DNA from: an uncultured Ectothiorhodospiraceae bacterium
GTDB lineage: Bacteria > Bacteroidota > Ignavibacteria > SZUA-365 > GCA-2699105
DNA: 64,000 nt
Direction of reading: 5' to 3'
Assembly: GCA_964408855.1 (NCBI GenBank)
Contig: CAYPBB010000010.1
Coordinates: 9,362 to 73,361 of the forward strand
Positions 6,750 to 62,622 of this stretch are shown here, piece by piece. Both the position numbers and the translations under genes were made by a program. The stretch's first letter is position 1. Each line of letters opens with the position of its first letter. Under the pieces are notes generated by a model. The model saw only the letters and a list, made by a program, of their open reading frames with translations. It had not been told where the DNA came from and ran no database searches.

Positions 6750-6760
6750 AATTATTTCGC

Positions 6761-15461: not shown

Positions 15462-16334
15462 GTGGAGGGTATTATGAAGCAATCAAGATTCATTCAGATG
15501 ATCATTGGGTTGATCCTTTTAGCAATTATTGCAGGATGTGATGCGTCTCCAGAAAGCAATATTAGAACAAACAGCAGAATGCTAGGATCGAGTCAGCTGC
15601 CGACCGTGTATGTTCCTTACAACACAGATAATCCATATGATTCTATTGGCGTGATGCATAACGACGCCATCATATATGCGTTATGTCAGTTAAGTAGTTC
15701 GGACAGCACTACAGCGTTGTGTGTTGCAAGAACAAAACTTGGAATGGTCGATTGGATGACTACGCATTTGCCGTTTAGCGCAGTAACTGTAGGCGCAGCA
15801 TTTGACTCAGCGGGAATAGATGCCGCGAATATTAATCTGATACCAATCAATAACTTATTAAACAGCTACAGTCTTTCCGTGTATGCGGCAGGAGAGTGTG
15901 ATTACATAAATAGAATAATTCAAGTTGCGGCAATGTCAGCTTCCGTCGACGAGAAGAGAGATAGTATTCTCGCGATAGAATACGACGTCGTACATGGCGT
16001 TAATCCTACCCCAGATATTTTGTGTACTATTTCCATTGCGAAATATTCGTTGTATCTCTGGACACATGCCTTCGCGTCGTACTGTAAAACGAGTAGAGCC
16101 TGGATGTACGCTAAGCCTGCGGAATATTTAATGATGCCGTATATTATACATATTGCCGATGTGGTTGGGTATATTGAAGGAAGCATCGAAGCAGCCAGAC
16201 AGGGTTTATCTGGATGCGAGAGAAATGAATATATTGGTATGTATAAAACAGAAACCTCCGCCAATGCCTATTGCATGTATTACGAAGGCGCGGATCGTTG
16301 CGAGTTTTACGAATTGATGAACTGCGGTAACTAA
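15462..16334 (+). CDS. Hypothetical lipoprotein
   Basis: Lipobox IIAGC; GGAGG RBS; NPYDSIGVMHN and SIAKYSLYLW motifs. Confidence 0.72.
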   Translation: MEGIMKQSRFIQMIIGLILLAIIAGCDASPESNIRTNSRMLGSSQLPTVYVPYNTDNPYDSIGVMHNDAIIYALCQLSSSDSTTALCVARTKLGMVDWMTTHLPFSAVTVGAAFDSAGIDAANINLIPINNLLNSYSLSVYAAGECDYINRIIQVAAMSASVDEKRDSILAIEYDVVHGVNPTPDILCTISIAKYSLYLWTHAFASYCKTSRAWMYAKPAEYLMMPYIIHIADVVGYIEGSIEAARQGLSGCERNEYIGMYKTETSANAYCMYYEGADRCEFYELMNCGN

Positions 16335-16371
16335 CGTCTTACGCACAAACACCTAAAGATGGAGAACTACA

Positions 16372-40247: not shown

Positions 40248-40713
40248 CGCTCTATTCTCTTCTTTGAGTAGATGAAATTATGATTTGCTCAGGAACCTGG
40301 CCGTTGTTTGTCTTCGGATCTTCGCTCACACACGAACGGATTAGCAAGAGTGATTTTGTGTATTGCTCCAGGGCAAACCTGGCGTACGATAAATCAAAAC
40401 AAATATCTTGGAAAAGCTGATCCCTCTTGTGCGAGTAACGTTCGCGAATGGCATTTGATGAATCAGTCCATGAGCATTCATACAAGGGACACGTCATCAG
40501 CTAAAAGGTTTAAGCGGACACCAGGGAAATCATCATGGGAAAAGTATGGGATTTGTTTTATCGAAGAACCCGAAGTGATGCGCTCGGAAGCACTCAGATT
40601 GTTCTCAAAGATTGCGCAGATCGGATGGGACTACCTCACAATCCATCCAGCTAAACATATTTCCGTTTTACTATCCCGCGCCGATCGAAGATGATCGGCA
40701 TTCCGTCTGGGAA

Positions 40714-40929
40714 CTACGCCCGCTGTCCGGACTTGAGATCGCGTTCGCGTTTCTCTGCTTCCAAGCGATTGAGAAATTCTTCCGTATACACCAAAGTCCA
40801 TGGTATACCGCGTTTCGTGAAGGTACTTTTCCCGGAATTATGCTGTTACAACCGCACCTCCAGATCCATTGTTGAACCGATGTACCGCTTTCGCAGGGTC
40901 GGACTCCAGAGCACGTACGTGTAAAACAT
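40714..40929 (-). pseudogene. GIY-YIG nuclease (UPF0213/YhbQ-like) with in-frame stop
   Basis: MFYTYVLWS..RKRYIGST.DLEVRL*QHNSGKSTFTKRGIPWTLVYTEEFLNRLEAEKRERDLKSGQRA*; TAA at 40846-40848. Confidence 0.85.
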
Positions 40930-40970
40930 TGTCACTCCCTCAGTAAGCAAAAGAGAGCCCGTCAGTCGCC

Positions 40971-41253
40971 GGACTCCTTTCGCGGAGAGGGTGGGATGCG
41001 AATCCGGCGGACGTGTCTGCATCCGGCCACCGACGGACCGGACTTTTCTCGCCGTACGCCTCGACAGCACACGGGTATTAATAAGGAGTCCGGATCTAGG
41101 ACTCCTTTCGCGGAGAGGGTGGGATGCGAATCCGGCGGACGTGTCTGCATCCGGCCACCGACGGACCGGACTTTTCTCGCCGTACGCCTCGACAGCCCAC
41201 GGGTACTAAAAAGGAGTCCGGATCTAGGACTCCTTTCGCGGAGAGGGTGGGAT
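40971..41253 (-). repeat. 128-bp tandem repeat (2 full units plus partial third), each with a terminator hairpin and a degenerate tRNA-Ser 3' end
   Basis: GGACTCCTTTCGCGGAGAGGGTGGGAT at 40971, 41099 and 41227; units 1 and 2 differ at 3 positions. Confidence 0.95.
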
Positions 41254-41262
41254 TCGAACCCA
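41239..41262 (-). other. 3' fragment of tRNA-Ser (T-arm plus acceptor strand), probable att core
   Basis: Minus strand TGGGTTCGAATCCCACCCTCTCCG (TTCGAATC T-loop, CCTCTCC acceptor strand, G discriminator); no tRNA 5' half upstream. Confidence 0.8.
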
Positions 41263-41481
41263 TAGCAGCCTAACTCGGCGTGTGACAATGGGTTAAATAC
41301 ACAGATTTCAAACCTTTCACATTTCTTTCACAAGTCTGAAGGCTTTCAGTGTTGCAGAGTTGCAGGCTTGCACGGCTACGATGGCTTGAGGTTCATTCCG
41401 AATCTATTTACGTTACCACCATATATGCTTAATTCGTCTGCGAGAAACGGGTCTTTGATCCCAGAATGGTCGGGGTGTTTT

Positions 41482-42972
41482 TTATCTCGCTTTTTTCGGA
41501 TTAGTTCTTGATTCTATCGATGGCGAACTTGTTTGAACATCAGAATGGTTATGCGTTTGTTCAATTCTGATTGAAGACGGTACAATTATTTCGAGTTTCT
41601 CAACACTTGTATTAGTTTGCTTAGAACTCCCGTAATTGGCGATGCACCAAGTAATAAGAAGTAAGCTGAATGCGAGAACTGCATAAAATACAGAGATCTT
41701 TTGTTTTGAATGTAGTTTGAACGATGGACTTCTCTCGCTTATCGATTTTGTCAGGTTCAATTCTGGGTAATGCTTTGACCAAATATCTTCAATTCTTGAT
41801 GAGCTCAAAACAGCACCTATTAGCAAATTGTGATACCAATGTCTGTCCATGAACCAGAAGACGCCCATCACAAACACACCTACGATTGGCATCAGAACTC
41901 CTGCAGACATCTCAAATCCAAGGACTGATATTGAGTAGTGCTCGTTTGCTAACCAACCAGTAGCAACAATAGTAAATGTAAATAGCGTTAGGGCGAAGTT
42001 CCTGATACGAAGCTCCAGGTCGTTGAAATGCATCTGAACCTCAATTGCCTTTTCCCAGATCTCCCTTGCTTCAGCGAAACGTGTGCTACGATCGTGTCCT
42101 ACATATTGCTCAAATTTGTATTGGTCTTGAATCTCCTTGTATGACTTTTTAAGGACAATCGTAGGTTCATTTGTAGATGTCTTCTTCTCCTCTTTTGCTT
42201 TTTTCTCTCGTTCTACTTCCTCATCGGACCAATGTGTAACCTCCCTTAGAAGATTGTATGCATCATTATCTGTTTCGGACCCATACTTGGCGTATATGCT
42301 ATCTACATTGACATCATTTGCCATCGCGATATCGCGATCCAGTTTGTCGCCAACGTAAATGACCTCGTCTGTTTTCAACCCGAAGTCACGAATAATAATG
42401 TTCAAGATTTCCGGGTTTGGTTTTTTTGTTTCCTTAGACAGATATCTGAACTGCGTGATTTTAGGTTCCCAGTATCCTTCTTCATAGTAACGCTTTGCGG
42501 AGGCTGGTAATCCTTCGTCGATAGGTGCATATACGAAGTCTATGAGGCCATCCAAACCCAAATGCTTTATCCGATACTTCGTGTAGAATGCACTTGACTC
42601 TGTGAAACCGACAACAAGTGTACCGGAAGCTGCTGCAAGTCGCAGTGTTTCAAGTACACCATCGTAAAGTTGAAGACTGTTCTTTTTATTGGAATTGTAT
42701 TCGTGAATAATGCTTCGTTTGTCTCCAGCACTGTCCTCAAAACGGCTCTTCTGCTCTTCGGTTAGACAATCCAATTCATGATAGAAGTGTGAAGATTCCG
42801 ACGAACCGTACTGTTGATGTAACCGTTTGAATGAAGCCTTAAGTTCTTCTCGGTCTACGGAAAACTCTTCTGCTATACGATTGAAGTATGGCTTGAACGA
42901 AGCATGCCACATACCGAGCCAATCCCAGATTGTATCATCTAAATCGGTAACGAGCATCTTAATTGCCTTCAT
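41482..42972 (-). CDS. HAD-superfamily phosphatase fused to a C-terminal three-TM domain; candidate anti-phage protein
   Basis: DLDDT (motif I), FTES (II), KKPNP (III), YVGDKLDRD (IV); three hydrophobic helices after about residue 305. Confidence 0.8.
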   Translation of the reverse strand: MKAIKMLVTDLDDTIWDWLGMWHASFKPYFNRIAEEFSVDREELKASFKRLHQQYGSSESSHFYHELDCLTEEQKSRFEDSAGDKRSIIHEYNSNKKNSLQLYDGVLETLRLAAASGTLVVGFTESSAFYTKYRIKHLGLDGLIDFVYAPIDEGLPASAKRYYEEGYWEPKITQFRYLSKETKKPNPEILNIIIRDFGLKTDEVIYVGDKLDRDIAMANDVNVDSIYAKYGSETDNDAYNLLREVTHWSDEEVEREKKAKEEKKTSTNEPTIVLKKSYKEIQDQYKFEQYVGHDRSTRFAEAREIWEKAIEVQMHFNDLELRIRNFALTLFTFTIVATGWLANEHYSISVLGFEMSAGVLMPIVGVFVMGVFWFMDRHWYHNLLIGAVLSSSRIEDIWSKHYPELNLTKSISERSPSFKLHSKQKISVFYAVLAFSLLLITWCIANYGSSKQTNTSVEKLEIIVPSSIRIEQTHNHSDVQTSSPSIESRTNPKKAR

Positions 42973-43230: not shown

Positions 43231-43656
43231 TCACTCAGTTGGTTGTGAAAGCAATTTCTCTTTCAACTCCGGTTTAAAATCAAACTCCCCCCAGCCTGAG
43301 CGAGTAAGAACACATTCATCCCATCCGGAGATTATTGCATTGAGGTGAGAGAGGATATTTCTTTCTGGTTCTTTCGATTTCCCTAGATCCATTTTTCTTC
43401 GTCGCATGAATTCCAGGATATCATTGCTCTTGACCGGCATCCGTTTTTCTCTAATTAATGCGATCGTAGCTTCATAGACGGATTTCCGCACACTTCCCCA
43501 ACGCGCCGGAGAAGGTCTTTGATCAGCCACTATAGCAGGCATAGCTTTCTCAAGAAGTTCAAGAACGGCCAATTCTTTCTTCTTTAATTCAGCAATCTTT
43601 TCCCGTATTCCTACGAGGTAAAGTTCCAATTCATGACGTGTTTTATCTGTGAGCAT
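43231..43656 (-). CDS. Hypothetical coiled-coil plus winged-helix-like protein
   Basis: Heptad N-terminus; VYEATIALIREKRMPVKSNDILEFM...RSGWGEF pattern; start uncertain. Confidence 0.55.
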   Translation of the reverse strand: MLTDKTRHELELYLVGIREKIAELKKKELAVLELLEKAMPAIVADQRPSPARWGSVRKSVYEATIALIREKRMPVKSNDILEFMRRRKMDLGKSKEPERNILSHLNAIISGWDECVLTRSGWGEFDFKPELKEKLLSQPTE

Positions 43657-43860
43657 ATCCATATCAGACTCACAATAAACATAGGCATAAATCACGTCCA
43701 TTTCAATCTCAAAGAGATTTATCCTCTTGCTAATAAGAGAGAATGTATGAAACTCTCTTATTATTTGCAAGAGTTTTTGCTCTTGTCGGTGAGTTTTTCT
43801 ACTTTTGGTACAAAATCATCACCGATTGTCATCCACAACCTGTGCACTATTAGAAATACG

Positions 43861-44442
43861 ATGAAATCCGACGAGAAAGACGATATGTCCGGAATACATG
43901 AACTATTCGAAGAATTTGGGCTGAAGCTCAAAAACAACCCAACCTCCGAAGAACTGAGATTCTTGCTTGAAAAGTTTATCGAAGAAACGCGGTTCACGCT
44001 CGCCTATCTGAATGAGTATGGAGCAATCACTAAGGTTGCACTCACTGAACTCTTTGGCGCTCTTGTCATGCTTATCAAATCCGAAAACGAAAAGACAGCG
44101 AATGTACAGGGTACGATTCAAAAGGCACTTGATCTCTTGAAAGCCATTCACATGAACACGGAACTGTCGCCAGAACAAGTCGTTGCGTACAGAGAAGACG
44201 TTTTTCGAATCATCGATGAAGCACGATCAGAAGCAGCTGAATCGAGACAATTCAACAGAGAAATCTTTTATGTGGCGTGCTATGTTGGTGGCGGTGTCGT
44301 ATTGACTACTATTGGCGTAGGTGTTTGGATGTTAACAAAAGGCCAGAGTTCTGGAATGCTAGCGAAGGGCGGCCAAATGGCTATGAAGGGCATTGATGCA
44401 GCTAAATCTGTATGGCACGCTAAAAAGGTTATTGGTAAGTAG
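43861..44442 (+). CDS. Hypothetical helical protein with C-terminal Gly-rich hydrophobic segment
   Basis: ORF from MKSDEKDD; FYVACYVGGGVVLTTIGVGVWMLTKG. Confidence 0.6.
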   Translation: MKSDEKDDMSGIHELFEEFGLKLKNNPTSEELRFLLEKFIEETRFTLAYLNEYGAITKVALTELFGALVMLIKSENEKTANVQGTIQKALDLLKAIHMNTELSPEQVVAYREDVFRIIDEARSEAAESRQFNREIFYVACYVGGGVVLTTIGVGVWMLTKGQSSGMLAKGGQMAMKGIDAAKSVWHAKKVIGK

Positions 44443-45730: not shown

Positions 45731-46015
45731 ATGAATACCTTTGATACACGAGATTTCTATCTCGCTTGTTTCCTGCATACAGAAGGGATAAGACTCTCTG
45801 GCCATTCGCGAGATGGCTCCAGAGTGATCTTTCATTTCAAGCTAACCGAAGAAACTGAAAACCTAGTGGATAAATATTTCCGGATGGACGCAGAAGTCAA
45901 TCCGATTGAGTACAGCTCGTCTATCAAGCATTTGAAGCACGTGATGTACGACTATACACCGATAATATTGGAGAATGAAGAATGTACAACAACACAGAGA
46001 ACACTAATGAACTAA
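45731..46015 (+). CDS. DUF5659-like small phage/satellite protein
   Basis: TRDFYLACFL...G..L.....GSRVIFHF pattern. Confidence 0.65.
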   Translation: MNTFDTRDFYLACFLHTEGIRLSGHSRDGSRVIFHFKLTEETENLVDKYFRMDAEVNPIEYSSSIKHLKHVMYDYTPIILENEECTTTQRTLMN

Positions 46016-48147
46016 ACTTCACATTTTCGTACGCAGAAAATCCCAATTTAATGGGATGGCTGACAAAATTCGAAACCAAAACAATCCCCACACCGGAACT
46101 CAACGAGTTCTTCACCACATACACATACAGTACAATAATCTGGGACGGACAAAGAAACGGAGATAATTTTTCCTATGCTGTAGGAGGAATTCTAGACTTT
46201 GACAATAAACCCGATGATGAGAGACAGTGGACTATAGATGAAGCAGTAGCTGCGTTTGAGGCAAACAATATGGCCTATGCATTGATCACCAGTAAATCAC
46301 ACACCTCGGACATACCCAAATTCCACGTATTTATACCGTTTAATAGAGTAGTTTATAACGTCGATGATTACAGACGGGTTATGCACTATCTAGTACATGT
46401 ACTGTATCCAGGCAGTGATAAAAAAATAAAAGATGGCGGCAGACAGATATTCCAAAGTCCGAAGAGCGCAATTTACCGTGATAATTTTCGATTACCATGT
46501 TTCAATATAGATACTGCAGCTTATCTGGAACCGGCAACTAGCCAGACATTGGTTTCGAGTTCTGCAGTGCCTACAGTAAAATCGTATAAACCGACGACAG
46601 CCAGTGCGAAGCAAAGAGATATTGAAACTATCAATAAGTCAGATGCATGGAAACCGGGTACGAAAGTACGCCTTGGAAATGGTTCAGTCGTTGCCATGGA
46701 TAGTGTCACGAAGTTAAATCGCGCTTTCTGTAATTGGCATGAAGTATCTGATAGACCATCGGCGGTTGTTGGATATTCTGAACGAAGCAGAAACCATTTC
46801 ATGCATTGTTTCAAGTGCAAAACTACCTTTTGGAAAGTCATGGATATAGATGTTACTCTCGCTAACTTCTATTCCTTTGGAAAATCTATCTATGAAGCAA
46901 GCATTTCCAACAACCTCTTTTACTTCACAGATATCGGAAAAGACAAGCTCGCAATATGAACTGGTGCCCCAACCAAGGAAAAGGCCGAGGAGTATTACCG
47001 TAAAGTAGTTAACGAGAAACATCTAGCAGTAACGCCAGCAGTAGAATACTATGGCAATCCTGATATCACGACTGCTCGGTTTGAACTTGACATGAGTAAA
47101 TGCAAAGCCAAGGTAGAGATTCCGCCAATACAGACCGATATTGATGACGATCAATTCATTGAGGATTACCTTGACCAGGTATTTGGTGAATACAAGGAGA
47201 CGATCAAACTCTACATGGCTCTTGTGATCTTCAGTAATTACCGACGACTTCCGACGCTAATCCTCACAGGAGCCAGATCCGCCAGTAAAACGACATTTGC
47301 GAACTTGTTATCTGCTGCATACCATTCAATGAGTACGACAATCCAGACAGTTCTCACGAGCTTTAATCCCTGGGCTGGGAAGAAAATCGTGACTCTTGAT
47401 GAGGGAGCTTCAGAAGGCAAGAGCCAGTATCGCGAGTTTAAGCGTATTTCAGGAGGAGAATGGATTTCTATCAACGAGAAATACAAAAACGAGTATAAGG
47501 TTCGGAATAATTCAACCCTTATCATACTCAGTAACGACATGTTTCCGATTACAGTCGAAGAAAGCGAAATCCCAACTGACGAAGCAGCGAACCAATTCCT
47601 GGTACTAAGACTTAGTAAACTCAACAAAACCCCCGACCCCCTTTATGGCAAAAAATTGGAAGAACGTTTAGGACACTATATTCAGAATGTTCTGCGTTCC
47701 ATCTATGATAGTCACGATACTTCTGTTTCTCGATACGGGATGTTGGTACCCATAACGGAATGGGAGGAACAGCTCTTCAAGAACAGCATGACAGAGACGG
47801 ATTACGTAATCGAATCGCTCATTGACGCGTTAGTCGATATACTAAACGGAAGTTCTGACTTTTACTCGTCGGATGACACACTAAAATTTGCACTTGAGGA
47901 AGGATATGTTCCAAAGGAAGTCATTGACAAGATCGCCAAGGAACATAAGATGAAAATCTCAGAGATCCACGAACGATTAACTTCAAAAGGTCTTTGTGAA
48001 CCACTCCGAAAGCAGGCAACCGAGAAATATGAAAGACCACAAATAAACGGGAAACGTCCCAGATGCCGGGAAATGACAAATGACCTGAAAACTATGCTGG
48101 ACGAATTGAAGTCTACGAATTCAGCACCAGATTTGTTCGGTGAATAA
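45982..48147 (+). pseudogene. Primase(-polymerase)-like/Zn-finger/DUF5906-type SF3 helicase fusion interrupted by one in-frame TGA (46957-46959)
   Basis: Both track ORFs (45982-46959 and 47092-48147) share one frame and the gap is open (AI*TGAPTKEKAEEYYRK...); TSKSH..KFHVFIP, CNWH...HCFKC, TGARSASKTTF, VTLDEG, IILSN motifs. Confidence 0.75.
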
Positions 48148-48943: not shown

Positions 48944-49375
48944 TCCAAAAGTGATAATCCCCTAGAAAATGGGTCCCATACCCCACCCCCCCGGGAGTGG
49001 AGTCAGACTGCCATACAAAACAAACCCGTTTTCTGGAGAGAATTCGGGTTTCGATTTTTTTTTGCCCATATTTTGGGAACCCCATTAGCGATTTTGCCCC
49101 GGATTCTAGAAGAGTCTTCCTTTTTACCGCGATAGGATTCACCAAGATCGCCCCGAAGATGCTATGTCCTATATTACTTGACACTTACAACAGCACGGCC
49201 CCTCTGATGCTGCCATCCTCCCCCAGCATTACGTTTCCATCAAATTGCTCATACATATTTCGTCATTCTGCACAATTTTCGTAAGTTTGCCCTTACAGTT
49301 TCAGAAATCTCAGTGTTTTTCGGTGACAATGGACGACCGTTAAAACGGGGGCCCTACCAAGTAAGTGAGAGTATT

Positions 49376-52300
49376 ATGACTTGCTTCTCAAGGATATCCA
49401 AAAATTCTCAAATTCGTACTTCACGTTCACTTCTATTTGCTGTGCTGCTCGTGATGTCTGGGATTCTTACATTATCCTTCGAGAGTAATGCTCAATGTGT
49501 CGTTTTTACCTCACCTACAAGCGGAACAATCGTTTCGCCTGGTGAGACTATCACAGTCACGGGAAATGTAATCAGTCCGAGTAGCTATGGACACTACGTA
49601 ACAATTTATTTCGGCACAACGAATTGTGAAATAGGCGAAATGGTGAGTGGATCGTCTTGTTCTTCAGCTTCCTCGGGAGGTTTTAGCGTCAATATTACCA
49701 TCCCAAATTATGTTGCGACAAATTGCATATACAGAATCTATGGTAGTATTGGTGGAAATTGCGATCCAAAGGAACCCGATCATCCCTGTGCCTGTAACGG
49801 CAACGGAGCATCTATTGAATTGGTCATAACCTGCGATGGCGCACCTCCATACCAACTTCAAGCCCCAAATTTAATATCCCCCATTAATTTTGAAGACAGA
49901 GTACGGAATCCAGCATACCATACCTGGGGAGATGTTCAGAACGCAGAGTTCTACGAAATTCAAGTCGACCCCTCTCCTAATTTCGATACGATTGTTCTTC
50001 AAGATTCCCTTGGCAAACCCTACTACGTTCCGATATTCAGAACAACTATTGATAGAACACAAACTGAGTTTATAGATTTTGCACCTGATTGGGAGAACAC
50101 AACATTTTATTGGCGTGTTCGTGCTGGATCATGTGACTGTAAGGTTTGGGGCCCATGGTCCGAGACATGGAGTTATACTACTGCACCTTGCATATCATTA
50201 GAGTTGCCCTTGAATGGTACAATATTTCAATCCGGTGAAATTACTTTGGTAGAAGGCCGAATTGTGGAGCCGCTTCTCTGGGGTAAAGAGGTAAGTGTAT
50301 GGCTAAATGGCCCCTACTATTATCCACCTGATCCCCAATACCCACCAAGTGAGATCGGACATGGATGTTCCTCCTTGAATGATGGAAGCTTCTCTTTGGA
50401 AATCACCCTGCTATCAGATCCTGGTGATGGTATTGCGCGTTCATTGGTCGATGGTGGATGGACCTTGACCCCTTATGTATTATCCAACGACGACTGTATT
50501 GGTGATGAGTATTATTGCGGTGGTGTTTCACAAGGTATATTCTACATCTACAACGACCTCCCACTTACACGTATTCAGGAACAAATTGGGCGAAATACTT
50601 CGTCAATCTATGTAGATGATCCAGTTGATATAATCACTGGAAACTTTCTTTATTCTGCGAACGATATCCACATCCCTGACAAGTTGGGAATCAACCTTAC
50701 TCGCAATTACAACAGCCAAAATATTCAGAATTCAGAACTCGGTGCAGGTTGGTCTTTCACGTTCGGTGCATCGCTTCAATTAGTTGATGATTGGAGAATC
50801 ATTGCACGCGGGGACGGAAGAAGGTTCGTCTTCAAGATGGATAGCTTGGGGACATACATACCCATGGAGTTTGCAGGAACAGAAGGTACGCTCGATTCAG
50901 CCACAACCGTTTGGACCTACACCAGCAAGTACGGATACAAGTATGATTTTGATAACACGGGACTGCTGCAATCCCTCAGTGACAGAAACGGAAACGAGAC
51001 AAGGTGCTTCTACAAAACGCACAACATGATCGATAGCTTGGTCATTCCTGGGGATAGACGTATTACCTTCTCATACTTGACAAGTCCGGATACGCTCATC
51101 GAATCCATTACTGATTTTATCGGCAGGACTCACAGGTATGCGTACGACACCGAAAGTAATCTTATCAGCTATATCAATCCTAGAGGCGACACGACCAAGT
51201 ACGAGTACGATACACAGCATCATCTGACAAAAATCATTGATCCCAGGGGCAACGTGTTTATTCAGAACAACTATGACCCCAAGGGACGTGTGATTGAGCA
51301 GTACGATGCCTTCGGTGCACGAACCGAGTTTGTGTACGATACGCTCGGGATGAGTACATACGTAGTCAACTACCTCGGTGATACAACAACATACGTCTAC
51401 GATCAGCACCACAGGATACTTTCGCAAACAACAGCTCTTGGATACTCTGAGTCATACGCTTACGATTCAACAAACAATCGAGCGTCGATCGATGACATGA
51501 ACGATGAGCTGTTCTCCTATCCTGAATACAGCCCCTTTGGTGATGTTGCCAGGGAGGAGAATCCTGTCTCGCAGGTCCGTACGTTCTCATACGATAGCAC
51601 AACAGGCGACTTGCTTGCGAGAGGTGATGACCTTGGCACCCTGGAAGAACGGAGCTACTCCACAAACGGTCTCCTCTTACAGCTAACGGATGCAAATGGA
51701 TCAGCGACCAATATGACATACGATGGTTATGGCTACCTGGAATCGACATCCATGGTAGCAGATGGGGCTTCCCGGACTACAGAATACGATTACGACATAG
51801 CCGGACGTATGCTCTCCAGGAAGAATCCGGAAGGAGATGTCACGGATTATCAATACGATGAATCTGATAATGTCACGTCTACCCTCTTTGCCAACGGAGC
51901 CAGTACTCAGAATGAATATGACGCAAACGACAATCTCATCAAGTCGATAGATCGAAACGGTAATGAGACCCGCTTTGAGTACGATGTAAACAATAACCTG
52001 CGGTTTGTTTACGCTCCTGAGAGCAAAACGACGGAGTATCGTTACGACAGTTTGAATCGCGTGACCAGTATGATCGATGCCGAAGGCGGTGTCTATGCGT
52101 ATCAATACGATGCCATGGGAAGAAAGACGCTTTCCATTGATCCGATAGGACGAACTACACACATGGGATACGACGGCAATGGCAACATGCTGTTCTCCAC
52201 CTCACCGAAAGGCGATACGACGCAGTTTATCTACAACGCTATCAATCAACTTGTTGAGAAGGTTAGTCCCGAAGGAAACACAACAAGTTACAGCTATGAT

Positions 52301-55300
52301 GTACGGGGAAGTCTCACTCAGATATCATATCCGAGTGGCAATACAATAGAGTACACATACGACGGGAACGGGAACCAGACATCAAAGAAGGAATATCTCG
52401 ACTCTACGACTACAAGGACCACAACCTACACATACAACGAAGCCAACCAGCTTGTGGAAACAACATATCCAAGCGGTGGAAAGGAGAAACGTACCTACGA
52501 CCGGAATGGCAATCTGATTGAACTGGTTACCATTGATGGCAAAACGACAGCATACGAATACAACGAGATGAACCGGGTTTCGAAAGAAACTGATTACAGG
52601 CAATTCTCCCAAGCGTATCAGTATGACAACAATCTGAACCTTCTTTCTGAGACTGATGATCTTGGAAGGCGGACAGCATACGCATACGACAAGGTCAACA
52701 GACAGGTAAGCACTACCGATCCCATCGGGAATACAGACTCCCTGGTGTACGACAAGCTCGATCGCGTTGTGCAAATGATCGATGCCAATGGAAATGCAAC
52801 AGTGTATGGCTATGATGCCGCTGGTCAACTGACTAGCGTCACGGATCCGCTTGGTAATTCCATGTCGTACCAGTATGATCTCAACGGTAATCTGTCACAG
52901 ATCACTTATGGAAATGGAAGAGTTGTAAGCGGCTTCATCTATGATAAGGACAACCGGTTACTCAACGAACCCGATCCGCCGACGTGGTACACGTACGATC
53001 CAAATGGCAACATTGCCTCGAAAGTCGATGCGAATGGTGATACAACTTCATACGAATACGATGGCGCCAATCAACTGCTCAGGAAGACCTTCAGCAGCGG
53101 AGGGAGCGTCCAGTATTCCTATAATGCAAATGGACTAGTGGAAAGCATAGAAGATGAGCAAGGACTTATCCGGATGCAGCACAATGCCGCAAATCAGTTG
53201 CTGGAACTTGCCACCCCGGATGGTATAATCCAGTACCAATATGCCGGTCCGAACAGGGTATCGATGAAGTATCCGAATGATGAGTTGCTCAAGTACTCCT
53301 ACGACCGCAACCGGCTTACAACCATTGAAGGGACCAGGGATGCAATAAGCTATACGTACTATGACAATGGACTCATTGAATCTTTGACCTATCCTGATAG
53401 TTCCGTTACTTATTATGCTTATGACGAAGCGAACCAGTTAGAGACGATCCTCAGTGAAACATCCGATGGTGAACTCATCACATCGGATGCTTACAAGTAC
53501 GATGAAGCAGGGAACAGAGTGATCAACATTCGCACGAGGCGCAGAAACCCCGGATTTGTCGGGGTACTTGTGGACAGCACGCTTCCCATGACGGCACTTC
53601 TAGCAAAGCATTTCTTCGATTCGCCAGTGGATACTATTCTCATCTGCTCCAATAGAGGATTCGCGCACAATGCTACTATAGCTGCCTATGCAAGTAAGCT
53701 CAATGCTCCGGTATTGTATGTGAATCCAAACACTCTGGTCGGCTCTCCCGAATTTACTACCGTCTTCTCGGACTTGACAGCAGGGTTCTCAGCTCCGCAT
53801 GCCATCGTATTTGGCGATGAAACTACCGTTTCCGATTACGTCGTTTCGCAATTGCACAGACTTGGTTGTACTACGGTGAGGATTTTTGGCAACAATCGTT
53901 TCGAAACCGCCAATCTCGTTGCCTCAAAGTTGCCAGTATATTCTGGTCAAAGAAAAGCATTCCTCACGGGATCATCGAATCCGGAAGACCTGGCCATATC
54001 TGCGTATGCTTCGGCGCTTCTGGGCATTCCTCAGTATATGACGTACAACGACGAGCTTGCACCTGAAACACTTGCTGCATTACAATCAGCGGGAATAGAT
54101 TCCATCATTGTTGTTGGCAACTCCATATCCGACGCTGTACTTCAGCAGTTGATAAGCAATGGAATTGTAGTAGTGCAACGATTTGATCAAGACAATATCC
54201 GCGAGCGTAGCGCAGCCATTCTGACAAACAGCGGGACCAACTTGGCTGAGAAGGGTCCCCTTTATCTTTGCGAGTCAAAGAACTTCAGGGAAGCGATTGC
54301 CATTTCAACTTACGTTGCGAACAGGAGCGGGTATGTCATCTGTGTGGATGATCCGGCCGACTATCTTGCAACAGTCTCGGACATGATCTCAATTGGCACT
54401 GAGGTTGATTCGATTTTCCTGCTGCAGACAAATCCGTTTGTCGACCAACAGGCGATTCAAATCCAACAGACGTTTTTCGGATACGAGGTTGATACTGTAC
54501 GCTACACCTACGATGATATGAACCAGCTTCTTGCCGAGAGCAGCAAGACATTTGGTGTGATGCAGTACACGTATGATGCCAACTACAATCGATCACGCCT
54601 TGTGGACAATGGTGTTGCTACCGATTACGCCTACGATACCTGGGACCGTCTTATCTCTGCCGGTACTACTGCGATGAATTACGACGGCAATGGAAACTTG
54701 ATAACCGAAACTGACGCTGACAAAACAAGTCAGTATGTATGGGATAGTCGTGGACGGCTCGCCGAGTACAACAATTCTCTTGGAGATACTGCACGATACA
54801 CCTACGATGCGCTAAACCATCGCATTCGTATTTCGAACATTCATTCCGAAGCATCTCCTGAGACAACCTCCTTGGTCTATGGTGACGATTGGGATGCTAT
54901 CCTCGAATTCGGTACGGCAGAAGACTCAATCAACTATCTGAGTGGTTTTGGTATCGATGATGTGTATCTGTCCCGCTCAGAGCAGGTATCGTTCCTCTAC
55001 AAAGATGCACTAGGGAGTATTGTTAGCGCAAGTAGCGACGAATCACAATCGTTCTCATCCTTGATGTACGATGGATTTGGGAATGCGAACCGGAATCTGA
55101 GTGTGTTTCCTTTGAGGTACTCGTACACAGGGCGGGAGTATGATTCACCTCTCAAGGGCTATTATTACCGAAATCGCACATACTCAGCTAGAAGAGGAAG
55201 ATTTCTATCGATGGATCCTATTGATCCACAAAAATGGTATTCTAGCAGTTTAAATAAGTACATTTATGTTAAAAACAATCCAGTGCGCTGCATCGATCCG

Positions 55301-55837
55301 AATGGGTATTATGGAATTGCGGTCAACTTCAATGCATCTATAGCATACTACGTTGGATTAGATTTTGACGTTACAATTGGATACGATGATAAGATTGGCT
55401 TATATAACAGCAATGACGTTGGGCTGCTCATCGGTATGGGATTGGATGGTAATGCATCTCTCGATATAGTTACAGAAGATAAAGTTCTGACTAGACATGG
55501 AGTAATTGTAAAGATACCAATTTCTGCCGATTTAGAGGTAGTTAAAGTCATTAGTGCAACACTCCTTGGCTTAGAGTATAGAGTTGGATCAGATGAAATC
55601 AGTATAAATCCCGATGTTGCATTTGCCAATGTCCATGGTGGTAGCAAAATTAATTTCTCTCTAAAAGAGTTGCAGTTGCCTGACGCTTATCCCAAGTTTG
55701 GCTTGCGCGGCGGGGTCGGGGCAGCACTAAAAATCGCCTCTATCTCGTATAGAAGTGAGAATACTATTGATATATCATGGATTACACCACATATATATAA
55801 TGCGAAAAGGATGTTAGACGAAATCATATTAAGATAA
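49376..55837 (+). CDS. Rhs/YD-repeat protein: signal peptide, Ig/FN3-like domains, DUF6531, YD repeats with inserted CWB2 trimer, Rhs core, about 176-aa C-terminal domain
   Basis: DPVDIITGN...LTRNYNSQ...LGAGWSFTF (DUF6531); YxYD repeats; GNNRFETA (CWB2); YSYTGREYD...YYYRNRTY...FLSMDP...NNPVRCIDPNG. Confidence 0.93.
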   Translation: MTCFSRISKNSQIRTSRSLLFAVLLVMSGILTLSFESNAQCVVFTSPTSGTIVSPGETITVTGNVISPSSYGHYVTIYFGTTNCEIGEMVSGSSCSSASSGGFSVNITIPNYVATNCIYRIYGSIGGNCDPKEPDHPCACNGNGASIELVITCDGAPPYQLQAPNLISPINFEDRVRNPAYHTWGDVQNAEFYEIQVDPSPNFDTIVLQDSLGKPYYVPIFRTTIDRTQTEFIDFAPDWENTTFYWRVRAGSCDCKVWGPWSETWSYTTAPCISLELPLNGTIFQSGEITLVEGRIVEPLLWGKEVSVWLNGPYYYPPDPQYPPSEIGHGCSSLNDGSFSLEITLLSDPGDGIARSLVDGGWTLTPYVLSNDDCIGDEYYCGGVSQGIFYIYNDLPLTRIQEQIGRNTSSIYVDDPVDIITGNFLYSANDIHIPDKLGINLTRNYNSQNIQNSELGAGWSFTFGASLQLVDDWRIIARGDGRRFVFKMDSLGTYIPMEFAGTEGTLDSATTVWTYTSKYGYKYDFDNTGLLQSLSDRNGNETRCFYKTHNMIDSLVIPGDRRITFSYLTSPDTLIESITDFIGRTHRYAYDTESNLISYINPRGDTTKYEYDTQHHLTKIIDPRGNVFIQNNYDPKGRVIEQYDAFGARTEFVYDTLGMSTYVVNYLGDTTTYVYDQHHRILSQTTALGYSESYAYDSTNNRASIDDMNDELFSYPEYSPFGDVAREENPVSQVRTFSYDSTTGDLLARGDDLGTLEERSYSTNGLLLQLTDANGSATNMTYDGYGYLESTSMVADGASRTTEYDYDIAGRMLSRKNPEGDVTDYQYDESDNVTSTLFANGASTQNEYDANDNLIKSIDRNGNETRFEYDVNNNLRFVYAPESKTTEYRYDSLNRVTSMIDAEGGVYAYQYDAMGRKTLSIDPIGRTTHMGYDGNGNMLFSTSPKGDTTQFIYNAINQLVEKVSPEGNTTSYSYDVRGSLTQISYPSGNTIEYTYDGNGNQTSKKEYLDSTTTRTTTYTYNEANQLVETTYPSGGKEKRTYDRNGNLIELVTIDGKTTAYEYNEMNRVSKETDYRQFSQAYQYDNNLNLLSETDDLGRRTAYAYDKVNRQVSTTDPIGNTDSLVYDKLDRVVQMIDANGNATVYGYDAAGQLTSVTDPLGNSMSYQYDLNGNLSQITYGNGRVVSGFIYDKDNRLLNEPDPPTWYTYDPNGNIASKVDANGDTTSYEYDGANQLLRKTFSSGGSVQYSYNANGLVESIEDEQGLIRMQHNAANQLLELATPDGIIQYQYAGPNRVSMKYPNDELLKYSYDRNRLTTIEGTRDAISYTYYDNGLIESLTYPDSSVTYYAYDEANQLETILSETSDGELITSDAYKYDEAGNRVINIRTRRRNPGFVGVLVDSTLPMTALLAKHFFDSPVDTILICSNRGFAHNATIAAYASKLNAPVLYVNPNTLVGSPEFTTVFSDLTAGFSAPHAIVFGDETTVSDYVVSQLHRLGCTTVRIFGNNRFETANLVASKLPVYSGQRKAFLTGSSNPEDLAISAYASALLGIPQYMTYNDELAPETLAALQSAGIDSIIVVGNSISDAVLQQLISNGIVVVQRFDQDNIRERSAAILTNSGTNLAEKGPLYLCESKNFREAIAISTYVANRSGYVICVDDPADYLATVSDMISIGTEVDSIFLLQTNPFVDQQAIQIQQTFFGYEVDTVRYTYDDMNQLLAESSKTFGVMQYTYDANYNRSRLVDNGVATDYAYDTWDRLISAGTTAMNYDGNGNLITETDADKTSQYVWDSRGRLAEYNNSLGDTARYTYDALNHRIRISNIHSEASPETTSLVYGDDWDAILEFGTAEDSINYLSGFGIDDVYLSRSEQVSFLYKDALGSIVSASSDESQSFSSLMYDGFGNANRNLSVFPLRYSYTGREYDSPLKGYYYRNRTYSARRGRFLSMDPIDPQKWYSSSLNKYIYVKNNPVRCIDPNGYYGIAVNFNASIAYYVGLDFDVTIGYDDKIGLYNSNDVGLLIGMGLDGNASLDIVTEDKVLTRHGVIVKIPISADLEVVKVISATLLGLEYRVGSDEISINPDVAFANVHGGSKINFSLKELQLPDAYPKFGLRGGVGAALKIASISYRSENTIDISWITPHIYNAKRMLDEIILR

Positions 55838-55904: not shown

Positions 55905-58517
55905 ATGATGATATACGTAATTGTTGATTCACTTGCACTATTTTCATTTATTTGTTGTTTGTTTCAATCGGCATTTGCGCAATCTGTGAATCCTGTGGGT
56001 ACGTCACTAGAGGTTTATGAATCATCTAACTCTATAAGTGTTGGTATTGTTTCAATTTCGCAAATTAATTCACACTCTTTCCTGCATGAACTGCGCTCAG
56101 GTGGAAACGGCTCCCTCATCGCATCCATTCCCGATCAATTGAAAGGCATGCCAACGTCCATCGCCGTTTTCGACCATACTATCCTAATCGGCTACCAGGA
56201 CTCAAACGAAGTACTCTTTTACAACTGTGTAACCTCTGCACAAACTTCCATCAAGTCTCCGAACAAGCATCTATTCGGTACTACTATCTCCAATGTCGCG
56301 AGTAGCTCTGGTCATGATTATTTTTGTGTTGCAGCAGAAACGTCCGGACAGGTCTTTCTGTATGATGGGCTCCCTAGTGCATTTGACCTATACGAACAGG
56401 TTCTTGAAGGTCTTCCCAGTTCTGGCTATGGACGAAGCTTGAGAGTTATTGACAATCTCACGGGCAATAATAAACCGTACGTTATTGTAGGAGGCCCATA
56501 CACATCAGATTCACTTATGGAGTACGGGAAGATTTACCTGTACTCAGGCCAACCGTTTGTCTTGGTGGATTCGATTTCAGGACCATGTGAATACTCGCAT
56601 TTTGGATCATCTCTTTCATCGGGCGATGTAAACGGCGACAGCTATCACGATCTAGTAGTAAGCGCCCCTGGCTCGGGAAATCATCACGAAGGAGCTGTCT
56701 ACGTGTACTACGGAGGGCCTCATTTCGATACAACCCCGGACAAAGCCTACTACGGGACACAGGCAGACGAATTGTTCGGTAACTCCATTCTTGCAGTAGA
56801 TCGTCGAACTGCTATGATTGGTGGCCTCGCGATTGGCAGCTACAATGCATCGCACAATGGCCAGTCCCGCAACGGCGCCTTGCACTGGTACAACATCACA
56901 AATCCACCGAACAGCAAAGCGGATACGGTGATCTATGGCGAAGCATCAAGCGATCACATGGGCTGGGCTTCTGCATTCATGTCCAAGTCTGCCACCTCTG
57001 ATTCCTGCGCAATACTCTACTCGTCACCGTACAATAGCTCGGCCAACAGTATTGAAGGCAAGGTGCATGTACTGGACCTCTTCAAACCGCGAGTCAAAGG
57101 ATTCGTAATCAATACATACCCGGAAAACATTGGCCTTAAGATCAAGGTCGAAAACAAGGAGTATCGGGACGGAGTCACTCTCGAATCAATCGTCGGAACG
57201 CCCTATCTGTTGTATACACAGGAAGTGCAGTATTCAGACTCGACTAATCAGCAAGTTCGCTGGCGTTTCGACCGGTGGAGTGATGGTGGAGAAAGAATCC
57301 ACAACGTCACCGCCGAAGAAGGAACTGTGATTACGGCATACTTCAAGAAAGAGGTAATGATTACATCGAGCGTCCTTCCGAACTGCGGCTCAACAGGTGT
57401 GTACGGTACAATCGAAGGTAATGAGTGGCATCAGGTGGGAACCTCGGAAACGCTCACCGCTATTCCGAGTCCCGGCGCAATGTTTTCGGGTTGGGAAGGC
57501 GCGGTCTCTCAAACCTCAGAGACTTTGACGCACGACTTCACTGAACCAACCACAGTTATTGCACGCTTCAAACTTCAGAATCCTGAAATAGACGATGTAC
57601 TCAACACGAGCATCAGCAGCAACGACCTGTCGATGGATATTTACTGGCATGATAATGCAAAAGGATTGGCAGAAGTTTGGACACTTGAGCGTAAATCATC
57701 TGTTGGAAATACGTGGAGTGAAGTAGCAACGCTCATCACGGGAAACAGTCCATACAGGGATACACACCAGCTCATCGAAAAAAGTAGCTATGCCTACCGG
57801 TTAAGAGCGAATTCATGCGATCCGACCAGCAATTCAGGCTATGGCGATATAGACCTTACAACGGTATTGGGGATGGATTCTGTCGTCATAGTCGAACCGC
57901 AGCCTCCGCTTGTAATTCAATATGACGACAATCACAATCCACTCGGAAATTTCCTGGTGAAGTTTTCACTCACGAACAAAACCGTGGATGAGTTCGAAGA
58001 CTCTCTTACTACGGAATTCATGGTCATGTCTGGGAATGTAGCATTGGCACCAGGTGAGATAGCATCGAAGCCATACTATGGTATCTTCACGACACAGGAG
58101 AATTACATCGCTACTTGGGAATGTGTCCCTGCGTATCAACCGTCAGACGACCTGGCAGTTGTCGCAATCAGATACTACCGCACCCCAGAACGCGCCGACA
58201 CTGCCTACAGTGAACCAATCGAGATTACACATACGATTGTCGGAATAGAATCGCCTCCTTCGGTACAATCGTACCGACTCTTTCAGAACTATCCCAATCC
58301 GTTTAGCGGCAACACAACCATTCTCTTCTACGCCAGTTCAAGCGCGACTGTCTCTTTGGTCATCCATGACATACTTGGCCATCCCGTGTACAAACGTGGA
58401 ATAGAGCCTACCGTAGGCCTCAATAGAATTGACATCAGCGGACTCCCATCCGGATCATATCTCTACGTTCTCCAAACTAATGAAGGATCGTTGTCCGGGA
58501 TAATGATAGCAAGATAA
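55905..58517 (+). CDS. T9SS-secreted FG-GAP/integrin-alpha propeller protein with InlB-type repeat and FN3-like domains
   Basis: Signal peptide; GDVNGDSYHDLVVSAPG...GAVYVYYG; FDRWSDGG, FSGWEG; LFQNYPNPF...SGSYLY CTD. Confidence 0.85.
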   Translation: MMIYVIVDSLALFSFICCLFQSAFAQSVNPVGTSLEVYESSNSISVGIVSISQINSHSFLHELRSGGNGSLIASIPDQLKGMPTSIAVFDHTILIGYQDSNEVLFYNCVTSAQTSIKSPNKHLFGTTISNVASSSGHDYFCVAAETSGQVFLYDGLPSAFDLYEQVLEGLPSSGYGRSLRVIDNLTGNNKPYVIVGGPYTSDSLMEYGKIYLYSGQPFVLVDSISGPCEYSHFGSSLSSGDVNGDSYHDLVVSAPGSGNHHEGAVYVYYGGPHFDTTPDKAYYGTQADELFGNSILAVDRRTAMIGGLAIGSYNASHNGQSRNGALHWYNITNPPNSKADTVIYGEASSDHMGWASAFMSKSATSDSCAILYSSPYNSSANSIEGKVHVLDLFKPRVKGFVINTYPENIGLKIKVENKEYRDGVTLESIVGTPYLLYTQEVQYSDSTNQQVRWRFDRWSDGGERIHNVTAEEGTVITAYFKKEVMITSSVLPNCGSTGVYGTIEGNEWHQVGTSETLTAIPSPGAMFSGWEGAVSQTSETLTHDFTEPTTVIARFKLQNPEIDDVLNTSISSNDLSMDIYWHDNAKGLAEVWTLERKSSVGNTWSEVATLITGNSPYRDTHQLIEKSSYAYRLRANSCDPTSNSGYGDIDLTTVLGMDSVVIVEPQPPLVIQYDDNHNPLGNFLVKFSLTNKTVDEFEDSLTTEFMVMSGNVALAPGEIASKPYYGIFTTQENYIATWECVPAYQPSDDLAVVAIRYYRTPERADTAYSEPIEITHTIVGIESPPSVQSYRLFQNYPNPFSGNTTILFYASSSATVSLVIHDILGHPVYKRGIEPTVGLNRIDISGLPSGSYLYVLQTNEGSLSGIMIAR

Positions 58518-62400: not shown

Positions 62401-62622
62401 AGTCTCCGGGAAACGATGCTTCTTCCCAAGATGTTCATATTCTGCGTTTTGTTTGAGCCATTCACTAAGAACTTTCTCAAGTAAAACATTCGAGTAATCC
62501 TCCCCGCGTAGTTCGTAGACCTCGCCATCTGACAGATACTCCCAGCCAAGCTTTTGCAAAAGTATCAGGGCAGGGAGCTTGCTCTGTTCGTCCTCGTTGT
62601 GCTGGTGGATGTAGATTGCCAT
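59458..62622 (-). CDS. hsdR: Type I restriction enzyme R subunit
   Basis: PDIVLFINGIPVVVIECK nuclease motif; HTQGSGKS, VDEGHR, FTGTP, LLTGFDAP, LLQAIARVNR helicase motifs. Confidence 0.97.
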   Translation of the reverse strand: MAIYIHQHNEDEQSKLPALILLQKLGWEYLSDGEVYELRGEDYSNVLLEKVLSEWLKQNAEYEHLGKKHRFPETVIRDAVLDLKRREESGFIPTNQKIHEILTHGKSFTVSEDVKSKTLHYIDWENSDRNVYHVVEEFKVERSGMHKHRIPDIVLFINGIPVVVIECKDRAAPGTTDPVDQAVNQMIKNQNEDEIPRLFHYAQLLIAVAESAAKYGTVRTSREYWSVWKEREYSDDDVKRVFDLSLSNEQLRALAIPGGRVVNEETNEYHVDRMVTEQDRLLFALCNRERLLKNIRSYSIFDRGVRKTPRYQQYFVVEKMLQRILEFDEDGTRRGGVVWHTQGSGKSLSMVMLVQGIFQSPAIKGETIVVVTDRVDLDEQIYNTFSDCNLEPERAKSGKHLAEMLERRNVSIITTVIDKFETALVKMKAPIDSTEVFVLVDEGHRTQYGKLHSAMKRVLRKACFIGFTGTPVRRNEKDTIKRFGGLIDTYTINQAVDDGAVVPLLYEGRHSQQIVQKESIDDWFEKVTKRLSKEEANDLKKRYSSTDQINNVEQRIMRIAWDISEHFADNWKGKDRKAQLVTSSKATALKYKKYLDSFKRVTSEVLISGPDDREGEIEGDDDKNDVLDFWKKMMYRWGSEEKYNTQIITNFKNADDPEIIIVVDKLLTGFDAPRNTILYLIRMLKEHTLLQAIARVNRLYEAKEYGYIIDYRGVLGELDNALKLYEKLEDFDAKDLVGLLTDVKEQLPDVKQKHSVLVGQFTTLRNRYDTEEIAQFLTERSERDKFYANLREFANVMEMALSTVRFHEITPAATIEMYKQDLKRYNKIRHSLGRRFAESVDFAEYEPKIKRLLDTYVGAEEVETIIAPVNIFEKDAFQAEVDALSTDAAKADTIAHRTKKSINELWDRDPEFYKRFSELIQATIDDFRNKRISESEYLSKVRQFEEQVRTRRGDDLPARLQNNDVAAAYFRSIKNFSGDSDAEKTAELCLKIDEVINRLRIVNWYYNEPQKNKMRNELDDLLFEALDDGLSVDVDQFDEIMDRCLAIAQSREER

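Follow-up and report, generated by a model that had tools for sequence, protein, structure and literature searches.

The closest described relative of the gene considered here is the two-gene "Hydrolase + 3TM" cassette pFR97, which encodes a hydrolase and a protein with three transmembrane (TM) helices and comes from the P4-satellite hotspot of Escherichia coli 2862600 (Rousset et al. 2022, PMC9122126). When cloned outside its carrier element, the E. coli pair inhibits phage T7 specifically; its authors propose abortive infection by analogy to other TM effectors and give no mechanism (PMC9122126). We analyzed a stretch of 64,000 nucleotides of contig CAYPBB010000010.1 (below, "the window" means this whole stretch) and found on its minus strand, at positions 41482..42972, a gene in which a HAD hydrolase and a 3TM module are joined in one protein. 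The gene is a 496-residue open reading frame (ORF) with an ATG start, the end at 41482 including the stop codon. Residues 1–292 (42097..42972, minus strand) make up a HAD-superfamily phosphatase domain with a helical C1-type cap, predicted to be cytoplasmic, and residues 293–460 (41593..42096, minus strand) make up the 3TM module, seen both with the PADLOC Hydrolase-TM model and in an AlphaFold2 (AF2) prediction.

A single-chain relative of the Hydrolase-3TM pair

Both halves of the protein were recognized by the PADLOC hidden Markov models (HMMs) of the two-gene system: PDLC03008 "Hydrolase" matched residues 5–292 (E 9.7e-61; profile positions 4–287 of 288) and PDLC03009 "Hydrolase-TM" matched residues 304–462 (E 5.3e-24; positions 23–185 of 210). 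In BLASTP comparisons with the pFR97 proteins, whose sequences are those given in Table S2A by Rousset et al. 2022 (PMC9122126), residues 6–292 aligned to residues 5–287 of the E. coli hydrolase with 35% identity (E 8e-62), and residues 293–454 aligned to residues 9–178 of the 3TM protein with 31% identity (E 2e-25). The initial annotation of this DNA had suggested a link to the DefenseFinder system Rst_Hydrolase-3Tm, supposed a natural fusion, and named PADLOC HMMs as a check; the matches of the two models to the two halves and the homology of both halves to pFR97 bear it out.

The likeness to the Rst_Hydrolase-3Tm pair of pFR97 extends over nearly the full lengths of both proteins. The hydrolase comes first, the HAD motifs are the same, three TM helices follow, the motifs HFND...RNF and D..WYH..LL.GAV are common to the two, and the window gene, like the pair, may be mobile-element cargo. 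The differences lie in the form and the carrier: the window has one chain of 496 residues where pFR97 has two genes (288 + 210 residues), the carrier here is not a P4 satellite, though a gene for a P4-type primase C-terminal domain is present, and the host is probably Bacteroidota-like and not an enterobacterium. Instead of the canonical two separate adjacent genes, a single ORF contains both parts in the same order. The junction is seamless and colinear, hydrolase residue 287 being followed directly by 3TM residue 9, and resembles the loss of a stop codon together with the first eight codons of the second gene. Judged by its sequence, the gene is a fused variant of a known two-gene system, and we regard it with high confidence as a single-polypeptide member of the defense family that DefenseFinder lists as Rst_Hydrolase-3Tm and PADLOC as hydrolase-TM.

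The gene is real and its enzyme part looks catalytically competent. A protein search returned 218 homologues, all 120 among the matches listed having E values of at most 1e-90, well outside what chance would give. Pfam assigned residues 4–238 to the HAD superfamily, the scores of HAD_2, Hydrolase, and Hydrolase_like each exceeding their curated cut-offs; PHROGs gave no useful match for the 496-residue protein. The four types of catalytic motif of the superfamily (DxDxT, T/S, K, and (G/S)Dx3-4D) are all present, and the four motifs that the initial annotation had described as intact were found on the minus strand as follows: motif I, DLDDT, at residues 10–14 (42931..42945), with the nucleophile Asp10 and the acid/base Asp12; motif II, FTES, at residues 123–126 (42595..42606); motif III, KKPNP, at residues 183–187 (42412..42426); and motif IV, GDKLDRD, at residues 208–214 (42331..42351). 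In an alignment of 93 homologues, D10, D12, and T14 were kept in 92, T124 was present in all 93, and K184, P185, G208, and D214 were invariant, while D209 was found in 89 and replaced by N in the other 4. The six catalytic residues (D10, D12, T124, K184, D209, and D214) were accordingly each kept in 89–93 of the 93 sequences.

In the AF2 model, the helices of residues 18–99 form a cap inserted between strand 1 and the Rossmann-like core of the HAD domain, and the domain ends with a conserved helix at residues 250–262 (LLREVTHWSDEEVEREKK) followed by a small beta unit. The best Foldseek matches of the enzyme were C1-capped HAD phosphatases (probability 1.00, E 1e-8 to 1e-5), among them 2hoq (PH1655), HDHD4/NANP, and phosphoglycolate phosphatases, at 12–18% identity. 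The predicted fold is of a small-molecule phosphatase type and gives no indication of substrate specificity. Capped members of the HAD superfamily act on small molecules, and it is because of this established classification and of the predicted C1-capped fold that we expect a small-molecule substrate for the domain.

Fusion, spread, and genomic company of the family

The single-chain arrangement is not peculiar to the window. A search with module residues 293–460 against 1.84 billion cluster representatives placed 865 clusters in the membrane-module family at E<=1e-3 and 519 at E<=1e-10. The best 150 cluster representatives comprised 119 stand-alone proteins (median 217 residues) and 31 proteins with a HAD domain in the same chain; in the latter the HAD domain was always N-terminal, and 16 were full length, the others being fragments. 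A pattern scan of one genome per species, covering 185,579 species, yielded 191 stretches that were confirmed. The 80 best of these were from Bacteroidota, Acidobacteriota, Alpha-, Beta-, and Gammaproteobacteria, Planctomycetota, Actinomycetota, Verrucomicrobiota, Rokubacteria, and Binatia, with one genome of the candidate phyla radiation (CPR) and one metagenome-assembled genome (MAG) of Bathyarchaeia.

These 80 stretches, three further loci, and the window made up the set of 83 loci in which we located both halves with HMMs of our own. The hydrolase gene lay immediately upstream of the 3TM gene in 42 loci, often with a 4-nucleotide overlap, and the two were fused in 34, of which 5 were incomplete. 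The gene order was reversed, with the hydrolase downstream, in 2 of the 83 loci, and 5 were without a hydrolase; of these 5, two are possibly truncated at contig ends, and the other three constitute a single orphan clade. A neighbor-joining tree of the TM domain implied at least 9 changes by fusion or fission, a figure from a rough tree that gives the order of magnitude only. We found no conserved third gene: BLAST of the window neighbors against all related loci returned only a DUF5906 protein, at one locus. Because of the near-constant pairing, the repeated fusion and fission, and the lack of a conserved third gene in this comparison, the sequences indicate that the hydrolase and the 3TM module are one obligatory unit, repeatedly joined and split, and that single-chain versions such as the window gene are numerous in nature. 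The fused state appears to be widespread and, in the literature as far as we found it, undescribed.

A second type of system, in which the 3TM protein would have another partner, was considered for three loci (L068, L079, and L085, from Paenalcaligenes, Ottowia, and Methyloglobulus) and rejected, since the neighbors of the 3TM genes were an RlmF-type RNA methyltransferase or a DDE transposase and the genes were judged orphans. At L085, a second, 8xMP-like membrane protein is encoded 1.4 kb upstream.

The loci at which homologues occur are rich in mobile and defense genes. In Flavobacterium alkalisoli, the fused gene comes after SNF2/DUF4391, GmrSD, and type III restriction–modification (R-M) genes and precedes two serine recombinases; in Sphingobacterium, it precedes HATPase_c_3, HNH, and N6_Mtase genes; and in Zunongwangia, it is the end gene of a mobilizable element with DUF5906, Toprim, and relaxase genes. 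We take the Zunongwangia carrier to be of the same kind as that in the window, as a gene of the DUF5906 type accompanies the fused gene in both. On the Rhizobium etli plasmid pRetIE4771c (locus L091), the fused homologue adjoins a divergent ABC-three-component system at 3945-7578, composed of a DUF3732 protein, a middle component, and an ABC-3C protein, and on a conjugative plasmid of Arthrobacter, the homologue lies between a recombinase/TnpV pair and an ISL3 transposase. IMG/VR contained five viral contigs with the system, one of them with the fused form; the GenBank phage collection gave no match.

For 22 loci, we also tallied the three genes on either side, which amounted to 132 proteins. 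In Pfam, the D12 methyltransferase and resolvase families occurred 4 times each, and ResIII, GmrSD, N6_N4_Mtase, N6_Mtase, HATPase_c_3, DndB, and AAA_21 occurred 2 times each; the PADLOC matches were type II methyltransferases, mREase_IV, MADS components, HEC-06, and "Orf5." The family is sporadic and moves on plasmids, islands, and mobile elements beside defense genes, the association being a qualitative one. The initial annotation had said that its proposal would fall if homologues sat in housekeeping contexts lacking defense genes; what we found around them were R-M, GmrSD, and ABC-three-component genes, recombinases, transposases, and plasmids.

These surroundings bear on two explanations in which the gene would have no direct part in defense. 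In the first, it encodes a membrane-tethered housekeeping or accessory phosphatase, acting on a lipid phosphate, phosphoglycolate, or an envelope precursor, that happens to travel on mobile elements and affects phages indirectly, for instance through an altered receptor. HAD enzymes are metabolic in most cases, and lipid metabolism includes HAD phosphatases that are anchored in the membrane; databases label the homologues "HAD family hydrolase" or "phosphoglycolate phosphatase," and some loci have housekeeping genes on one side. The T7 receptor is lipopolysaccharide (LPS), and resistance to T7 only could thus follow from an envelope change. The database names, however, are automatic family-level labels, and the spread of the gene is patchy, with the 191 confirmed stretches among 185,579 species reaching phyla whose envelopes differ greatly, with Actinomycetota and an archaeal MAG among the carriers. 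The gene is also repeatedly found within R-M and defense clusters, on plasmids, and beside recombinases, and the window protein matches both proteins of a defense-hotspot cassette that blocks T7. We therefore consider a housekeeping role improbable.

The second explanation is a selfish stabilization or exclusion module of a primase element, toxin–antitoxin-like, in which the membrane part would be the toxin and the enzyme its neutralizer, with no response to phage. The tight 1:1 coupling of the two parts would suit such a module, as would the position of the gene, in the window and in Zunongwangia alike, at the margin of a mobile-element-like stretch containing P4-type primase genes, and the plasmid copy placed between a recombinase and a transposase. 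A covalent fusion, however, precludes differential stability of toxin and neutralizer, yet 34 of the 83 loci are fused; the conserved catalytic site would be unnecessary for a simple neutralizer; and the E. coli pair protected against T7 when cloned away from its element. Among the explanations considered, we give this one very little credence.

The membrane module and the proposed direction of signaling

The three TM helices quoted in the initial annotation were located on the minus strand at residues 324–341 (TM1, RNFALTLFTFTIVATGWL, 41950..42003), 358–374 (TM2, GVLMPIVGVFVMGVFWF, 41851..41901), and 428–444 (TM3, VFYAVLAFSLLLITWCI, 41641..41691), and three helices were indeed predicted: TM1 is supported by the sequence, the alignment, and the AF2 helix 295–344, TM2 by a hydropathy peak at 348–377 and the AF2 helix 357–398, and TM3 by a hydropathy peak at 425–449 and the AF2 helix 422–451. 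The AF2 model of the full protein, based on the 93-sequence alignment, had a predicted local distance difference test score (pLDDT) of 90.1 and a predicted template modeling score (pTM) of 0.75, and the module modeled by itself reached a pLDDT of 93.3 and a pTM of 0.84. The model shows a helix of 50 residues (295–344), of which the first part is juxtamembrane and the second half is TM1, then a short beta hairpin on the outside (347–356) between the first two long helices, a helix of 42 residues (357–398) composed of TM2 and a cytoplasmic stalk, a short helix (407–414), and the TM3 helix. The C-terminal tail (residues 452–496; 41485..41619, minus strand) is poorly conserved, differs in length among homologues, and is predicted to be disordered and outside the cytoplasmic membrane, with pLDDT <50 for residues 472–496. 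A weak Pfam match to STING_LBD over TM3 and the tail (E 0.095) was dismissed as noise.

The invariant residues of the module just ahead of TM1 are polar (Q313, H315, N317, D318, R324, and N325), to which F316 is added; D376, W379, Y380, H381, and E395 are conserved just after TM2, and S415 is a further conserved polar residue. TM1 itself is Thr-rich and the least hydrophobic of the three helices, and its T329 is kept in at least 90% of homologues. In the predicted topology, the conserved polar positions lie on the cytoplasmic face, adjoining the enzyme. As the invariant residues are polar and juxtamembrane, the module seems to be more than is needed for a passive anchor.

The loop at 343–356 has 0 Lys/Arg and that at 375–425 has 8. 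An 802-residue homologue (P0086) is a fused HAD-3TM protein with an additional C-terminal OmpA-like domain, and a 424-residue relative (P0184) combines an N-terminal 3TM module with a C-terminal class-B acid phosphatase (HAD IIIB) expected on the outer side of the membrane. From the loop charges and the C-terminal domains of these two proteins, the HAD domain is predicted to be cytoplasmic and the C-terminus to be outside. P0184 further hints that phosphatases may recur as partners of the module on either side of the membrane.

No relative of known function was found for the module in the Protein Data Bank (PDB): a Foldseek search with the module alone gave generic helical bundles only (best E 1.0), and a profile of it against PDB sequences gave only chance matches, to calcium channels, at E 0.03. 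Among 87 stand-alone module relatives, 35 matched the Pfam family PF24838 8xMP (octameric membrane protein family) weakly, with a best E of 7e-7, and the one such match that was checked scored 18 bits against a cut-off of 30 bits. The window protein itself had no match to PF24838 in Pfam, and no paper on the family was found; a relation of the module to 8xMP is distant at most.

We read the protein as probably a Hydrolase-3TM defense protein with a phosphatase-coupled membrane effector, acting by abortive infection. The protein would oligomerize through its 3TM module in the inner membrane, and its capped HAD domain would bind and dephosphorylate a small phospho-compound, most plausibly a nucleotide or other phosphometabolite whose level shifts on infection. 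The occupancy or turnover state of the enzyme could then be relayed into the membrane through the long helices 295–344 and 357–398, which carry the conserved QxHFND and DxxWYH motifs, and the module would switch to a leaky state, causing growth arrest or death of the infected cell before phage release. In layout, a cytoplasmic enzyme or sensor joined to a small multi-helix membrane protein, this resembles the TM effectors of CBASS and Pycsar, RexAB, and the 2TM protein of retron Ec48. The resemblance is one of layout only, as we found no sequence or structural relation to these systems; there is no second-messenger synthase here, and the enzyme is a phosphatase-type hydrolase.

Several observations weigh against this reading or limit it. 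The pore-forming role is an analogy with other TM effectors, the membrane module having no characterized structural or sequence relative in the PDB searches, and the enzyme's Foldseek matches, at such low identity, carry no information on specificity. Published evidence on the E. coli pair is limited to a T7 plaque phenotype, and our literature search gave listings and no mechanistic paper. With only 31–35% identity to the validated proteins and a probably Bacteroidota-like host, the phage range is not transferable to the window protein. The neighbor census had no matched control and its counts are of families rather than of distinct defense neighbors, which makes the enrichment qualitative, and ordinary housekeeping genes flank some of the loci, namely those of Sphingobacterium and Zunongwangia. 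Finally, the same data also agree with the opposite wiring, a sensing membrane part and a HAD domain that acts as effector.

The direction of signaling is the part of the reading on which a related HAD protein with another partner has most to say. At 3355-5837 of the Enterobacter hormaechei plasmid NZ_CP043384.1 (locus L093), a related HAD-IA gene overlaps that of a 549-residue metallophosphoesterase by 4 nucleotides; the pair lies directly upstream of the Hachiman genes hamA/hamB, and the same pair is found on 9 Klebsiella plasmids. A P4-hotspot cassette of this kind, the "Phosphoesterase + HAD" cassette pFR96, is listed in Table S2B among the "additional tested systems," apart from the table that holds pFR97 (PMC9122126). 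The pFR96-type HAD-IA resembles the HAD domain of the window (28.5% identity over residues 4–250, E 5e-23) and differs in that its partner is a metallophosphoesterase, not a membrane protein, and that the partner gene comes first. From these sequences, the metallophosphoesterase looks like a second type of partner for the HAD clade, with a constant enzyme and an exchangeable partner. In other defense systems, the constant part is usually the sensor and the exchanged part usually the effector. If the HADs are functionally equivalent, the constancy of the HAD domain and the exchange of its partner are our chief, though indirect, reason for ranking an enzyme that senses and a membrane module that executes above the reverse; on the sequence evidence, we favor this direction only tentatively.

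With the reverse wiring, the HAD domain would itself be the effector and destroy a phosphorylated compound that the phage needs, while the 3TM module would anchor the enzyme and sense or gate, for example in response to DNA injection or envelope perturbation. The compound could be the dNMPs/dNTPs that T7 recycles from host DNA, in which case the outcome would be nucleotide depletion and cell death would be unnecessary. The near-invariant catalytic residues are as expected if turnover is the output, and the capped HAD fold is common to nucleotidases and phosphometabolite phosphatases. The HHpred matches given for the E. coli hydrolase, there labeled "Hydrolase + 4TM," include 5'-nucleotidase families (supplementary table of PMC9122126). 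In the window protein, the conserved cap aromatics W18, W22, F26, and Y92 could stack a base. T7 depends on recycled host nucleotides, and protection against T7 only would fit this dependence. In P0184, moreover, the 3TM module is attached to another kind of HAD phosphatase, one of periplasmic type, so that a phosphatase recurs as the partner of the module. Against these stand the toxicity of a constitutive nucleotidase, which would require a gate, and none has been identified; the strongly conserved polar juxtamembrane motifs, which exceed the needs of an anchor; and the related HAD that exchanges the 3TM module for a metallophosphoesterase, whereas elsewhere it is usually the effector that is exchanged. 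We consider the reversed arrangement rather doubtful.

In a bolder version of the sensing enzyme, the HAD clade would be dedicated to immunity as a phospho-sensor controlling effectors that can be exchanged, and the fused protein would form an oligomeric pore gated by the phosphatase. Such a pore would be opened by a phospho-compound made by the phage or by the proteome-wide hyperphosphorylation that T7-type kinases cause. We think this unlikely, and a link to the hyper-promiscuous T7 kinase (PMC13645617) is speculative; the paper on that kinase (PMC13645617, 2026) makes no mention of the Hydrolase-3TM system. If true, a phosphatase-gated pore would be a new sensing principle, a channel coupled to enzyme turnover, with a membrane module lacking structural precedent.

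The locus in the window and the value of the single-chain form

The gene can reasonably be placed at the edge of an island. A tRNA-Ser-like 3' fragment of 58 nucleotides (41239..41296, minus strand; GGGTTCGAATCCCACCCTCTCCGCG), comprising the variable arm, the T arm, and the 3' strand of the acceptor, starts 186 nucleotides past the stop codon of the gene, with a terminator hairpin beyond it at lower coordinates. At permissive settings, the fragment gave an Rfam match to RF04351, a model that we take to be antisense to plastid trnS, on the plus strand (E 0.005, below the gathering score). ARAGORN detected no tRNA in the 64-kb window, nor did Rfam at gathering thresholds detect RNA of any kind there. 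The fragment is an incomplete tRNA and a possible island boundary or attachment (att) remnant. Within the window, it has no second copy beyond a local tandem array of 128-bp units, and no integrase was seen among the larger ORFs scanned between 41.3 and 64 kb.

The initial annotation had described the gene as the first within the att site of an element in which R-M and a HEPN ATPase are also found. The tRNA-Ser 3' fragment beside the gene makes an att site plausible, while neither a second copy in the window nor an integrase among the scanned ORFs was seen to complete it; the opposite end of the element may be located past the window. Likewise, a type I restriction subunit and an ATPase with AAA_13 and DUF4145 domains are present, and their membership in the same element is not demonstrable from the window. 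G+C content is 0.39-0.43 at 42–49 kb; the 4 kb ahead of the gene have 0.47-0.49, and most of the first 27 kb of the window has 0.51-0.59. A second stretch of low G+C at 14000-18000 (0.42-0.46 vs 0.51-0.59 around it) is possibly an inserted element.

The tandem array spans 40971-41258, with 2.2 copies of the 128-bp unit at 97% identity. Each unit ends in the same ~35 nucleotides, made up of the terminator hairpin and the tRNA-Ser-like acceptor end; a proper T-loop, GGGTTCGAATCCC, is found in the last, partial copy only, and the two full copies read GGATTCGCATCCC. The repeats may represent att remnants in series or a pseudo-tRNA end that was duplicated, and Logan contigs with the gene end at the array. 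Adjoining the tRNA-like fragment at ~40700-40940 on the minus strand is a gene resembling those of GIY-YIG nucleases, MFYTYVLWSPTLRKRYIGSTMDLEVRL*QHNSGKSTFTKRGIPWTLVYTEEF..., whose reading frame contains a stop codon and which is probably a pseudogene.

Directly upstream of the fused gene, 43231-44442 contains two ORFs of 179 residues (minus strand) and 269 residues (plus strand), on opposite strands and partly overlapping. Neither had a match in Pfam, PADLOC, or PHROGs, or relatives near other HAD-3TM loci; the 269-residue ORF has a C-terminal hydrophobic segment. A MORN-repeat protein and further proteins without assignment are also encoded upstream. Next on the plus strand are a primase/helicase-like N-terminal part at 45982-46959, matching DNA primase/helicase families in PHROGs, and a P4-type primase C-terminal NTPase with DUF5906 at 47092-48147 (Pfam E 1e-15; PHROGs DNA primase/helicase). 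Read in context, this pair (45982..48147) may be part of a small mobile or replicative element. The plus strand continues with a 2174-residue RHS/YD-repeat protein with Pfam DUF6531 and CWB2 domains (49313-55837), at the 3' end of whose gene (55–56 kb) G+C falls to 0.39, typical of an exchangeable toxin tip, and with an FG-GAP protein bearing a sorting domain of the type IX secretion system (55905-58517), which points to the Bacteroidota/FCB group.

On the minus strand, domain scans and PADLOC identified a YgjP-like metallopeptidase from 58744 (58.7 kb), the type I restriction subunit HsdR at 59458-62622 (REase_I, E 2e-191), and the AAA_13 + DUF4145 ATPase from 62627 to beyond the window end. 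The HsdR and ATPase genes are 16–20 kb from the fused gene, behind those of the RHS and sorting-domain proteins, and their layout resembles that of PrrC/RloC-type anticodon nucleases within type I R-M loci.

The fused forms provide a Rosetta-stone argument from sequence that the hydrolase and the membrane protein interact directly and act as one physical unit in a 1:1 ratio. They define the junction, where the C-terminal helix of the hydrolase is followed by the juxtamembrane helix with the HFND motif, and they fix the predicted orientation, with the enzyme cytoplasmic and the C-terminus outside. The gain is incremental, not conceptual, and the single-gene form gives a handle for genetics, biochemistry, and cryo-EM on a validated system that lacks a mechanism. 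Rule sets that demand two separate genes would probably miss a fused one, and two-gene detection rules probably undercount the Hydrolase-3TM system, whose family is far wider than the enterobacterial P4 hotspot and has many members labeled only "HAD family hydrolase" or "phosphoglycolate phosphatase."

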